Source: a virus
Virus record (IMG/VR): IMGVR_UViG_3300027976_003189
Reading direction: 5' to 3' (one strand)
DNA length: 64,000 bases
Part shown: positions 20,969-44,927 of the stretch, one piece after another
Layout: each line of letters starts with the position of its first letter
Position numbering within the stretch: position 1 is the stretch's first letter
Notes under the pieces: generated by a model
Told to the model about the DNA's origin: nothing
Seen by the model: the letters and a program-made list of their open reading frames with translations, nothing else
Databases searched by the model: none
Made by a program: the position numbers and the translations under genes

Positions 20969-21277
20969 ATGAATTGGTATCACACTTCAAAATTCGCATT
21001 TCCGGTTTTCCAGGACTCTCTGCGAAATCAATTATTGCATGAATACAAATGGATGTGGAGACCGTTCTATCAAAGAGGATTAAAGGAAATACCAATAGGT
21101 ATTCGTCTTATCCAAACTGATGAAGGCAAGTGGGGAGTTATAAATAATGACGGAAGTATAATTGTAGATTATGAACCATCTAACGAAGCACCGGAAGAAA
21201 GTGGAAAGCAAATAGACTTAAAAGAAAGAGTTGTTAACCAGGCTCTAAAAAGACTGTTCATGTCTCTAGCTGTATAA
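20969..21277 (+). CDS. MNWY-leader protein containing one WG-repeat-like motif
   Basis: Starts MNWYHTSK; GKWGVINNDGSIIVDYE resembles a WG repeat; SD-like AAGGA. One of only two credible plus-strand genes. Confidence 0.65.
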   Translation: MNWYHTSKFAFPVFQDSLRNQLLHEYKWMWRPFYQRGLKEIPIGIRLIQTDEGKWGVINNDGSIIVDYEPSNEAPEESGKQIDLKERVVNQALKRLFMSLAV

Positions 21278-22043
21278 CTGGGAATAGATCTAACTGATTA
21301 TCATTTAATCTTTTAGATGCTATATCATAATATTCTTTTTCTTTTTCAATTCCTATAAAAATTCTTCCTGTATTTCTTGCTGCCAAAAGAGATGATCCGC
21401 TACCTGCACAATTATCTAAAACAACTTCCCCTTCATCTGAATGAGTTTTTATCAGATACTCACACAGGTTAATTGGTTTTTCTGAGCTATGGACTCTGCT
21501 ATAATTATCAACACATTTGAACTCTAAAATATTAGTTGGAAATCTTGTTGTTTTTCCGCCTTCATAATTTCTTTTATTTTTCCCGAAATATGCCTGTCCA
21601 TTTGAGCAACCCTTAGCAGAATTAGTAGGAATATGACCATCACTTATTTGAGGATTATATTTACCTCCCATAAATATGCATATCTCTTCAATCTTTCTTA
21701 TAGGCATTCTTTTGGCATGAAAAAAGTTTGTTCCCTGGTTCTTTAACCAATACCAGCAAAACTTGAAATCTTTTTCATTTGAAGATATTAACTTTGTAGT
21801 AAATGGTTGAGAAGAAAATAGAGCTATAGTTCCATTAGGCTTTACAATTCTCTTGTATTGCTTCCATAAATTATCCATGTCTACCAACTTATCCCAATCG
21901 GGAGCAGTTATTCCATATGGCAAGTCGCATAAAACCATATCTACAGAAGAATCTGGAATATGAGGCATTATGTCAAGACAATCTCCAAAAATAATCTTAT
22001 TATGAAAATCCAAATTAATATTCTTTAAATGAGGTAGTTTCAA
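21258..22043 (-). CDS. DNA amino-methyltransferase (N6-A/N4-C, beta class)
   Basis: Motif IV DLPY comes before motif I VLDNCAGSGS; also HSSEKP and FIGIEKE. Confidence 0.92.
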   Translation of the reverse strand: MKLPHLKNINLDFHNKIIFGDCLDIMPHIPDSSVDMVLCDLPYGITAPDWDKLVDMDNLWKQYKRIVKPNGTIALFSSQPFTTKLISSNEKDFKFCWYWLKNQGTNFFHAKRMPIRKIEEICIFMGGKYNPQISDGHIPTNSAKGCSNGQAYFGKNKRNYEGGKTTRFPTNILEFKCVDNYSRVHSSEKPINLCEYLIKTHSDEGEVVLDNCAGSGSSLLAARNTGRIFIGIEKEKEYYDIASKRLNDNQLDLFPVIQLET

Positions 22044-22258
22044 CCAGCATCAAAAACAGGTTCGCTCTCGTCTGCCTCTACTGGTTCAGGAAGATCTTTA
22101 CTCCAATTAAATTTTGGTCTAAAATCTCCATCTCCATCTGAATAAATAGTAACATGCCTAGATGAGCCAATACTTCCAAGAGTTTGCATATAACTTAGCA
22201 TACCAAGAAAGTGCGGAACCCATCTATCATTCATCTCTACTTCAATTGTGAATTTCAT
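22040..22258 (-). CDS. Small hypothetical phage protein
   Basis: 72 aa ending YSDGDGDFRPKF...; ATGA overlap with the MTase gene. Confidence 0.65.
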   Translation of the reverse strand: MKFTIEVEMNDRWVPHFLGMLSYMQTLGSIGSSRHVTIYSDGDGDFRPKFNWSKDLPEPVEADESEPVFDAG

Positions 22259-22282
22259 TTTCTATCCATGAACAAGTAACTT

Positions 22283-42640: not shown

Positions 42641-42681
42641 TTGTATCTCCCTTATGATATCGACACTATTGATTCTAAATT

Positions 42682-42945
42682 ATGAAATTTGCACAAGATA
42701 ATGGAGATAACTTGAATACTAGAACAGAAATAATAAAAATTAGCTCATTCAGTACAATAGATGAACAGAATAACCAAGTAATATTAGATGTATTCCAAGA
42801 AATAATATATCTATATTCACAAGATGATTCCGGTATTATCTACGGAGAAAAATTTATAAAAATTCAAGGAACTCAAGAAGATGTTGGTCAATTGGATGAA
42901 AATAAATTTATGACCCACTCAGGCAGGGCATTAAAGAGAATTTGA
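42682..42945 (+). CDS. Hypothetical plus-strand protein starting MKFAQ
   Basis: 87 aa; fills the gap between the phosphatase and neuB genes, convergent with neuB. Confidence 0.5.
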   Translation: MKFAQDNGDNLNTRTEIIKISSFSTIDEQNNQVILDVFQEIIYLYSQDDSGIIYGEKFIKIQGTQEDVGQLDENKFMTHSGRALKRI

Positions 42946-43782
42946 AATTTTAAGCTTTGATCTTTGAGATTCTTCCATATCTGTCATGTCTTTTTCTTTG
43001 AACTTCAAAGCTTTCTCTATAGCCACAATATCCCTACAAAGCCTTCTAAGCCCATCTGGTTCTAAAGATGCCGCATGGTCAGTTCCTTTCATAGTACGGT
43101 CTAGAGAGAAATGACGTTCGATCCAAGATGCCCCAAGAGAATAGGCAATAACATCAGCTGCTATACCGTAATTATGGCCAGAATATCCAACGACTGGAAA
43201 CATCTTCTTTAAGTTCTCTACTTCTCGCAAATAGAGATGGTCAAATGGACATGGATATTCTGTTGTAGTATGATAAATAACAACTCTATCTTTGTAATTC
43301 TCTAAAAATACAAAAAGATTTTCACGTTCTAATTTTGTCATCATTCCAAGAGAAATATGCAGATCACCATCGTAACTCTTAAAAAGCATTGATAATATAT
43401 TAAGACATGTATTGGCAGCAGACGGTATTTTAATAAAGTCAGGATTTAAAGATGCTATCTCGGCAGCAGATGTCATATCCCAAACAGAGCAAGAGTAACC
43501 AATCCCAATGTCGTCAGACACTTTTTTAAGTTCCTTATGCTGGTCTAAAGAAAATTCTAGGTTAACCCTATGCTCTAAATATGTCGATCCAAAAGCATTT
43601 GATTGATTAGGATGAGGCTTGTTGTGCCATTCTTTAGGTACAGATTCTACTGGATTTCTTTTTTGCCATTTTATATAATCTGCACCACATATCTTAGCCA
43701 TCTTAATCATTTCTATGGCTACATCTAATTTTCCGAGATGATTGCAACACCCTTCTGCTACTATTTTACATGATTTTTTCAT
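42931..43782 (-). CDS. neuB: NeuB-family nonulosonate(-9-phosphate) synthase, short form without the AFP/SAF domain
   Basis: IVAEGCCNHLG, GADYIKWQK, FIKIPSA, EYP, GYSGH, IERHFSLDRTMKGTDHAASLEPDG. Confidence 0.93.
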   Translation of the reverse strand: MKKSCKIVAEGCCNHLGKLDVAIEMIKMAKICGADYIKWQKRNPVESVPKEWHNKPHPNQSNAFGSTYLEHRVNLEFSLDQHKELKKVSDDIGIGYSCSVWDMTSAAEIASLNPDFIKIPSAANTCLNILSMLFKSYDGDLHISLGMMTKLERENLFVFLENYKDRVVIYHTTTEYPCPFDHLYLREVENLKKMFPVVGYSGHNYGIAADVIAYSLGASWIERHFSLDRTMKGTDHAASLEPDGLRRLCRDIVAIEKALKFKEKDMTDMEESQRSKLKISNSL

Positions 43783-44927
43783 AATAACGCAGCGAGAAAT
43801 CGCTGCCTCCTATTAAATAAGAATAATTCGTTTCTCAATCTATCCTGCAATTCTCTTAATTGTCTAATTTGATATTGATTCTTATCATCCCCTGCATATG
43901 ACTGAATTGCCACAGGAAGTGTATTCTGTATTGCAGGAACTTGTTTTGCTTTTTCCTGCCTTACTCTTTCCCATCTAGCCTTAGCAGCATCGCTAAGTCT
44001 CTTTTTGTATACAGGGTTATTCTTAAGTTGTTCCATCATTAATTTAGACTTTTCTGACTTTCTCTTTCTAGATTCTTCACTCCAGCCTTTCAGACTGTAT
44101 TGAATTCCTCTTTCACTGATTATTTTAGATACATAACCTTTAGATACATTAAGAGCATTAGATATATCTTCTATAGATTTTCCTTCTAACAACATATTTG
44201 CTATATTATCTTCATTTGCTGAAAAATCAGGTATATTTCTAGTTAATACAGTATTAGGACTTTTTATAGGATTTTCATCAAAATGATGAATCATAGACTC
44301 TCCGGCATTATTTCCATAACCAGCATCGGCACCTGGAGCCTGTAACATGTTGATAAAATCCCCTCTTAAATTTAATTTTTCTATAAGAGCCTGTCTTGCA
44401 TGAGATTTATCTTTTGAATTTCCAAATTGTCTATCTATCATGTTTCCAATATATTTTAATCTCTGGTAATCTCCGTTATTTCCCTCTATAATATCGCTAA
44501 ATCCTATACCCAAACCATCCCATATCATATATTTAAGCATAGGAATATAATCTTCTGTAGAATTTAATTTCCTATTATAAGCTATTGTTCTGGCAACAGC
44601 ATTATAAGGAATATTAACCATTTTTGATATCGCTGACACTCCATGCCCATTTTCATATAATGGCATAATCTTAGAAATTCTATCCTTATCTGCCCACGAA
44701 GGAGTTCTTAATTTTGATCTTTTTCTATTAGTATTATTATGCCCATTTAGATGAAAATAGGCTCTTATGTAATTTGATGGTATTTTTGTTAATTCAGAAA
44801 TTGCTTTCTGAGTAGCACCAGGATTATCTTTAATAGATTTTTCTATCAATGTTTTTTGTTCAGTAGTTAAAGCTCTAATAGCCTCCTTGAACATACTGGA
44901 AAATTGAGATGTTTTATACCAGTTCAT
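43779..44927 (-). CDS. MNWY-leader protein with three HTH-like motifs and a basic NUMOD3-like helix
   Basis: Starts MNWYKTSQ; GATQKAISELTKIP, GVSAISKMVNIPYNAV, KSIEDISNALNVSKGYVSKI; SEESRKRKSEK. Confidence 0.75.
   Translation of the reverse strand: MNWYKTSQFSSMFKEAIRALTTEQKTLIEKSIKDNPGATQKAISELTKIPSNYIRAYFHLNGHNNTNRKRSKLRTPSWADKDRISKIMPLYENGHGVSAISKMVNIPYNAVARTIAYNRKLNSTEDYIPMLKYMIWDGLGIGFSDIIEGNNGDYQRLKYIGNMIDRQFGNSKDKSHARQALIEKLNLRGDFINMLQAPGADAGYGNNAGESMIHHFDENPIKSPNTVLTRNIPDFSANEDNIANMLLEGKSIEDISNALNVSKGYVSKIISERGIQYSLKGWSEESRKRKSEKSKLMMEQLKNNPVYKKRLSDAAKARWERVRQEKAKQVPAIQNTLPVAIQSYAGDDKNQYQIRQLRELQDRLRNELFLFNRRQRFLAALL

Follow-up and report, generated by a model that had tools for sequence, protein, structure and literature searches.

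Why should three otherwise unrelated proteins of one phage open with nearly the same eight residues? The question is raised by a 64,000-nucleotide (nt) stretch of DNA from a large uncultivated phage (IMG/VR record IMGVR_UViG_3300027976_003189; 87 open reading frames, ORFs), called here, in its whole length, the window. An initial annotation had noted a shared N-terminal leader, hereafter the tag, on ORFs that start at 20969 (+), 29796 (−) and 44927 (−), and all three leaders translate exactly as claimed:

20969..20992, + strand: tag MNWYHTSK, the first 8 codons of the gene for the 102-aa protein P0001
29773..29796, − strand: tag MNWFKLAK, the first 8 codons of the 2H phosphoesterase gene (P0002)
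44904..44927, − strand: tag MNWYKTSQ, the first 8 codons of the gene for a protein with multiple helix-turn-helix (HTH) modules (P0003)

The string ATG-AAY-TGG occurs only five times in the six frames of the window, and three of the five mark the earliest possible start of a real ORF, these ORFs having 102, 145, and 382 aa. Against these three MNW[YF] starts, about 0.005 would be expected among 87 ORFs from composition, or 0.0025 from position-specific frequencies; the probability of three or more is 2e-8 with the residue frequencies of the window and 3e-9 with position-specific frequencies, which rules out chance as the origin of the shared leader. The bodies behind the tags are unrelated, as had been noted, when compared with Pfam and PHROG:

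20969..21277, + strand: P0001, a small tagged protein of 102 aa encoded by a lone + strand gene
29359..29796, − strand: P0002, a 2H phosphoesterase of the Swiss-Army-Knife 2H (2H-SAK) family, with HVSV and HITF motifs
43779..44927, − strand: P0003, a 382-aa protein with three HTH modules, encoded between CMP-sugar synthetase-like and NeuB-like genes

P0001 has no family match in Pfam or PHROG; its orthologues P0008 and P0009 begin MNWYHLSK and MNWYHTYK, and a syntenic homologue on the opposite strand of a relative (G002) begins MGWYAKLL. P0002 belongs to Pfam PF22547 (2H-SAK; E 4.3e-12, 46.8 bits, cut-off 27), scoring above the gathering cut-off and carrying both H-x-[ST]-x motifs; HVSV and HITF correspond, in an alignment with homologues, to the conserved columns GAHISV and FHIT. 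Among solved folds P0002 comes closest, though weakly, to phage 2H phosphodiesterases and to Acb1, an anti-CBASS nuclease. P0003 matches HTH_23, HTH_24, and HTH_38 in Pfam and DNA-binding families in PHROG, and tagged HTH proteins recur in a second relative (G006) at 100217 and 101697. No close relatives of P0002 or P0003 were found in IMG/VR. The tag is shown by AlphaFold2 (AF2) modelling as a predicted unstructured, flexible segment: the P0002 model has a confident fold (predicted local distance difference test, pLDDT, 88) in which residues 1–12 are coil (pLDDT about 66) and the first strand spans residues 13–20, and the P0001 model is poor overall (pLDDT 59), with residues 1–7 below 50.

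The genes had further been described as scattered, stand-alone units, two of them with 5′ regions lacking a Shine-Dalgarno (SD) sequence, and each description holds in part. The gene at 20969 does stand alone on the + strand; the gene at 44927 overlaps the next gene by 4 nt. The 5′ regions of the genes at 29796 and 44927 are indeed SD-less and AAGGA is present upstream of the gene at 20969, but about half of all ORFs lack an SD sequence, and SD-less starts were rejected as a distinguishing feature because they are equally common among untagged genes.

The strongest evidence on what is conserved comes from the HTH gene. The window protein reads MNWYKTSQ-FSS-MFKEAIRAL; the 69% orthologue P0006 reads MNWYKTSQ-VDI-MFKEAIRAL, and a 52% orthologue (locus L051) reads MNWYKTSQ-IYN-MFKEAIRAL with the Asn2 codon changed from AAC to AAT. 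The DNA 5′ of the ATG has diverged among all three, so the tag forms a 24-nt island of peptide conservation with both flanks diverged. With the tag retained in both orthologues and its flanks diverged, the MNW start of the 382-aa gene can be taken as real, although gene callers began the gene at M12 (P0005 and P0007) and skipped the tag. The tag start of P0002 lies one codon from an upstream in-frame stop. Across 33 tags AAT and AAC, and TAT and TAC, are all used, and variants carry extra leading residues (MKNWYK, MVNWYK, MFFNWYK). No common upstream motif was found for the three window genes or for about 25 tagged genes in relatives, and a shared DNA cassette of promoter, ribosome-binding site, and tag was rejected on this ground. 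The aligned sequences show the tag to be selected at the level of the peptide. There is a gain for annotation as well, since the tag fixes true starts where callers truncate, as in P0005 and P0007, or fuse: the “internal” M-NWYK cases P0036, P0050, and P0021 sit directly ahead of a domain and look like fused or over-extended gene calls.

Beyond the window, 66 tagged ORFs give the consensus M-N-W-[YF]-K-x-[IAS]-[KQ], after which conservation ends; all three window tags fit, and the form that includes the variation in the window is MNW[YF]-K/H-x-[AS]-[KQ]. A scan of IMG/VR for ATGAAYTGGTAYAARAC returned 50 loci, roughly half of which coincide with an ORF start. With MNWYKxAQ as query and ORFs of 50 aa or more counted, 42 of 47 matches in IMG/VR fell at ORF starts, and 596 Gb of bacterial and archaeal genomes from GTDB yielded 12 matches, three of them at ORF starts and all three on short contigs of metagenome-assembled genomes. 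These scans show the tag to be essentially confined to viral DNA and always at the predicted start of translation. No MNWYK-type string was found in the literature searched, and a survey of jumbo phages mentions no such tag (PMC7824862).

Tagged proteins span at least 25 Pfam families, including inorganic pyrophosphatase (InPase), cREC_REC, a CCA-adding enzyme with HD domain, PNK-like AAA_33, 2H-SAK, GNATs, lysozyme, LysM, methyltransferase, PcfJ with an intein, HTH, aldo-keto reductase, and glucose-6-phosphate dehydrogenase (G6PD). Within 2H-SAK the tag opens 11 proteins among the 150 best homologues and is missing from the others, and the linker from the tag to the first strand of the 2H domain varies from about 6 to 25 residues. 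The tag is a discrete, portable peptide module borne by unrelated accessory proteins and followed by a variable linker. Of the earlier proposal that it is a portable capsid-packaging or cleavage tag defining a set of injected proteins, one part stands: it is portable, strictly N-terminal, selected as a peptide, virus-specific, and marks an accessory set; the packaging part is weighed below. Many untagged homologues of P0002 carry a second recurrent N-terminal extension of about 45–60 residues ahead of the 2H domain, roughly MKII.T.K.KK..KK.LKKYW.L..P (P0020, P0026, P0029–P0031, P0043, P0045, and P0161).

Several tagged genes per locus are common, with 16 within 13 kb of locus L026 and 11 in L046. 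The L026 locus (G001, 69.5–77.4 kb) holds 15 consecutive tagged genes, most of them from one small family of about 125 aa that begins MNWYK.IK[LI]A[LV]P and has a Y.D[IV]GH motif; members of the family that have different tag endings are found in L078, L089, L099, and L102.

The phage behind the window can be placed through its gene order. The window encodes a tail tube, a head-tail adaptor, an actin-like (Volactin) protein, PhoH, topoisomerase I, a helicase, a recombinase, a split DnaE, and a 17-kb glycan island. No close relative was found in the phage collection, the best match being 27% identity to two uncultured huge phages, and 41 of the 87 window ORFs match G006, a genome of 460,978 bp with terminal repeats, in conserved gene order. 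G006 has about 16 tagged ORFs among 684, the two tagged HTH proteins included, and five other huge genomes reached through the tag (296–548 kb) encode a capsid protein 74–90% identical to that of G006. A T4-like control genome of 365 kb has an S77 protease, lacks the capsid protein of the clade, and carries a single, family-specific MNWYK. An apparent “capsid” match in G003 was spurious, and the head module of that genome was unreadable.

No head genes were found inside the window. Its left end stops inside a 2045-aa gene; a 357-aa ORF in the “capsid position” was rejected as a capsid candidate, being the actin-like Volactin homologue; and the 613-aa and 886-aa ORFs have no family match and are barely similar to each other. 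Walking past the right end added 26 kb (IF3, DnaB, methylases, glycosyltransferases, RNA ligase), in which no further tag was found, before all contigs ended. A metagenome scan with the G006 capsid protein led to contigs from the window's own samples (Ga0105051, Ga0163144, Ga0163155, and Ga0105050). The exact capsid protein, 82% identical to that of G006, lies on contigs of ERZ27247429, ERZ27247431, 3300007523, and 3300007722, and each of these samples also has a window contig. Window contigs and head-module contigs share a methylase segment that is 95–98% identical at the DNA level, and the two were taken as very probably parts of the same phage population. The methylase repeat may explain why assemblies break; it occupies window positions 21281–22010 and about 13500–14250 of the head-module contig L261, and the window methyltransferase gene (21258–22043) overlaps the 3′ end of the tagged gene at 20969.

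The head-module stretch (L260 plus L261; 39,186 bp) encodes a portal, a protease-scaffold, a 726-aa protein, and the capsid protein. With a Phage_capsid_4 (PF25209) capsid protein, a giant protease-scaffold, and synteny with a complete member, the phage of the window is, as judged from gene content and order, a member of the huge-phage clade that uses the tag. In the 10 kb that follow the capsid gene are four further tagged ORFs:

78-aa ORF, beginning MNWYKTSQ
246-aa ORF, beginning MNWFKKYA
496-aa ORF, beginning MNWYARVI
157-aa ORF (GNAT-like), beginning MNWYKLAA

With the three ORFs of the window and these four, a short N-terminal peptide is common to unrelated proteins of one phage, as it is in a capsid-targeting sequence (CTS). 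A UvrD-like helicase on the head-module contig begins MSWWKSNI.

The head-module proteins themselves echo the end of the tag, whose second half overlaps a motif, K-x-A-[QS] (also written K.A[QS]), that recurs in them. The protease-scaffold (2053 aa, L260:12847–19008) begins MAFKKIAQ and has 11 K.A[QS] sites, and the 726-aa protein begins MPSKSAQ and has six. The head-module proteins have 27 K.A[QS] in 6,213 aa, compared with 10 in 25,717 aa elsewhere, an 11-fold enrichment, and none of 1000 shuffles reaches 27. The same motif emerged from an unbiased scan of the G006 proteome for all 8000 patterns of the form a.bc, with the first 15 residues of each protein excluded. After Gly/Met repeats, the top patterns of the G006 head module (64.9–81.5 kb; portal, an 1834-aa protein with an N-terminal maturation-protease domain, and capsid protein) were K.AQ (12 vs. 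0.6 expected, p 2e-12) and K.AS (13 vs. 1.1, p 2e-10). Residue shuffles of the G006 head proteins gave 1.2 K.AQ against 12 observed and 3.4 K.A[QS] against 25 observed, and the permuted motifs Q.AK and K.QA were at expectation; the enrichment is therefore not an effect of composition. The G006 proteome contains 12 non-tag K.AQ sites followed by a hydrophobic residue or Q; the head module, with 3.4% of all residues, accounts for nine of them, and of the remaining three, two are N-terminal, falling no later than residue 12 of their proteins. Some sites are kept between genomes (K.AQYVG.QGY, PITKNAQ[FY]AG in the portal, and K[EK]AQMMGGEMG in the scaffold), and in five more genomes K.A[QS] is enriched 4- to 16-fold in head modules relative to control regions; over seven genomes of the clade, where it is the leading non-repeat motif of the head modules, the enrichment is likewise 4- to 16-fold.

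The protease domain of the clade forms the N-terminus of a protein of 1,800–2,400 aa and matches phrog_18299 and, only weakly, Peptidase_S78_2. Pfam S77 (gp21-type) protease has no match in G001–G004, and a T4-type S77 protease was rejected as the common partner of the tag, being absent from tag-rich genomes and present only in the T4-like control. In the protease-scaffold and its homologues (G006 74390–79894 and L231) the maturation protease is joined in one protein to a scaffold-like region of 1,800–2,400 aa with Gly/Met-rich repeats (MMGGEMGG), Cys-rich zinc-ribbon-like inserts, and acidic tracts.

A motif that is enriched in the head module and also opens the protease-scaffold fits a cleavable capsid-targeting peptide, and by analogy with known phages we put at about even the chance that the tag is an N-terminal address of this kind, which would load proteins into the phage head. 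Its aromatic head, NWY, would dock the newly made protein onto the scaffold and protease core during prohead assembly; the head-maturation protease would then cut at the K-x-A-[QSK] end of the tag, a motif that also occurs throughout the protease-scaffold, at the portal N-terminus, and in other head-module proteins; and the trimmed cargo would stay in the head and enter the host with the DNA. For the phage of the window, the cargo would include the 2H phosphoesterase, the multi-HTH DNA-binding protein, and the small protein P0001.

Several points weigh against a capsid address. The window tags, with the endings SK, AK, and SQ, are no more than similar to the head motif, and SQ or IK is the ending of many tags elsewhere; K.SQ is not among the motifs enriched in the G006 head module. 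The NWY core was not found in head proteins, save for the loose resemblances MAIYKTAT and SWYKK. K-x-A-[QS] could instead serve in binding or have a structural role. The tagged proteins include G6PD, aldo-keto reductase, inorganic pyrophosphatase, and the CCA-adding enzyme, and little would seem to be gained from packaging a few copies of such enzymes. Finally, window and head module are assigned to one genome because they co-occur in four samples and share the methylase segment, not because an assembly joins them.

The closest parallel is T4. The T4 CTS has the sequence MKTYQEFIAE and ends at the gp21 cleavage site. Like the tag, the CTS of IPI, IPII, IPIII, and Alt is an N-terminal peptide of about 8–10 residues on diverse, fast-evolving accessory proteins, and the tag, like the CTS, ends in a motif that recurs in proteins of the head core. 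There is no similarity between the two sequences; the clade, unlike T4, lacks an S77 protease in the four genomes searched for it; the putative cleavage site is K-x-A-[QS] in the clade and L/I-x-E in T4; and the tag is found on far more families than the T4 CTS, metabolic enzymes among them. With neither CTS homology nor a gp21-type S77 protease, and with sequence, protease type, and site all different, the tag would be an analogue of the T4 CTS and not a homologue. The internal proteins of T-even phages are a diverse set with only the CTS conserved, are placed into the scaffolding core, and provide a CTS that can carry foreign proteins into the head (PMC3012670); the arrays of up to 15 tagged, hypervariable small genes in the clade resemble these sets. 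In phiKZ-like giant phages, many head proteins lose an N-terminal propeptide to the prohead protease (gp245 in SPN3US), which cuts at a short consensus that recurs several times in scaffold-like proteins (PMC10052503). The phiKZ-like propeptides, carried by head and ejection proteins, are long and protein-specific, whereas the tag is a shared peptide of eight residues; their cleavage motif differs from K-x-A-[QS], and the phages are unrelated to the clade.

The same observations can be read without a capsid. The tag might dock onto a shared partner outside the prohead, such as a chaperone of the phage or the host, a protease hub, or some phage structure inside the cell, by which the enzymes would be sorted, folded, or activated in the cell and never packaged; we regard this as unlikely, although the cargo speaks for it, since tagged cytoplasmic enzymes of metabolism and RNA repair (G6PD, aldo-keto reductase, InPase, the CCA-adding enzyme, and the PNK-like kinases) act best in bulk in the cytoplasm. 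The tag has the character of a flexible linear motif, there is a precedent in T4 gp23, whose N-terminal peptide reportedly steers the protein to the chaperonin (Snyder and Tarkowski 2005), and sharing K-x-A-[QS] with head proteins fits a common handler as well as a common destination. If so, MNWYK would be the address of a new phage-specific system of sorting or handling, with a common receptor that also reads K-x-A-[QS] on head proteins, a proposal we hold to be doubtful. Docking of this kind leaves the restriction of the tag to accessory proteins unexplained, no candidate partner was identified, and the four tagged genes after the capsid gene, together with the tag-like N-terminus of the protease-scaffold, point to head assembly.

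It is very improbable that the tag is an N-terminal degron or timing signal through which ClpXP-type or phage proteases would make tagged proteins short-lived. The ClpX N-motif-1 of lambda O and Dps follows the order polar, T or hydrophobic, hydrophobic, basic, hydrophobic, and NWYK-x resembles this pattern. Methionine aminopeptidase leaves the initiator Met in place when Asn is at position 2, which would give the tagged proteins a uniform N-terminus, and in the models the tag appears exposed and unstructured. Position 6 of the tag, however, is mostly T, Q, or K and not hydrophobic; a degron read by a host protease would not be expected to be confined to a single clade of phages or to be missing from cellular genomes; and both the head-module motif and the tag-like start of the protease-scaffold are left unexplained.

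That the shared start acts on DNA or mRNA, as a cassette junction or translation-initiation element of which the peptide is a by-product, is the least probable reading and is largely refuted by the codon variation and the lack of an upstream motif: although the first codons are A/U-rich, codon 5 is AAA in 28 tags and AAG in one (bulk ratio 72:28), two of the three window genes lack an SD sequence, and the two tagged HTH genes of G006 share an identical upstream stretch of about 55 nt, many tagged genes lie in tight operon-like arrays, SD-less starts do not set tagged genes apart, Trp (UGG) and the alternation of Y and F are kept, and extra residues may precede NWYK.

If the tag does mark capsid cargo, a simple sequence rule would list, with no need for culture, the injected arsenal of an uncultivated huge-phage clade, anti-defence enzymes, RNA-repair enzymes, and DNA-binding factors included; the tag would be a ready handle for loading foreign proteins into such capsids; and the specificity of the giant protease-scaffold, so far unstudied, would follow from the tag together with K-x-A-[QS]. 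Should its function be different, the tag would be a sign of an as yet undescribed sorting step during infection by huge phages.

Two more genes of the window had been suggested to carry variants of the tag, MKFAQ at 42682 and KLAKK/KVAA at 16089. Neither has the NW[YF] core, and the suggestion is not upheld: both show only a K-x-A-[QK] half-motif.

42682..42945, + strand: P0004, an 87-aa protein that begins MKFAQ, with the K-x-A-Q half-motif only
13429..16089, − strand: P0011, an 886-aa protein of the structural block, with N-terminal KLAK and KVAA half-motifs

P0004 is the product of a real, conserved gene that lies alone on the opposite strand; its counterpart in a diverged relative, 63% identical over its full length, is in L051 (5114–5374, −), where the first codon is ATA, the peptide reads IKFSQ, and the start lies two codons after a stop; the copy either uses a non-canonical start or is a decaying gene. 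P0011 begins MDIKKLLGKLAKKDISKVAA. Its counterpart in G006, at the same place in the gene order, is a 913-aa ORF (114052–116793) that has a weak BLAST match to the 613-aa ORF neighbouring P0011 in the window, and its counterpart in G002, an 892-aa ORF, is assigned by position only. The starts of P0004 and P0011 are compatible with a K-x-A-x theme.

A few further observations concern other genes of the window and its surroundings. The Volactin gene (11596–12669, −; Pfam E 3.5e-59) lies within the head-tail block and is its best conserved gene, with 65% identity to G006 and 61% to G002; the copy in L059 (721 aa) contains an intein with a LAGLIDADG domain. About 9.3 kb past the right end of the window, L055:224–733 encodes a full-length IF3 (IF3_N plus IF3_C) that adjoins DnaB, DnaG, and five DNA methyltransferase genes. 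At 57128–62834 (−), DnaE is encoded by two genes with three small genes between them, one a dCMP deaminase; the N-terminal DnaE gene has weak Hint, intein, and LAGLIDADG matches in Pfam, and in L056 the neighbouring recombinase gene (799 aa) has a LAGLIDADG insertion.

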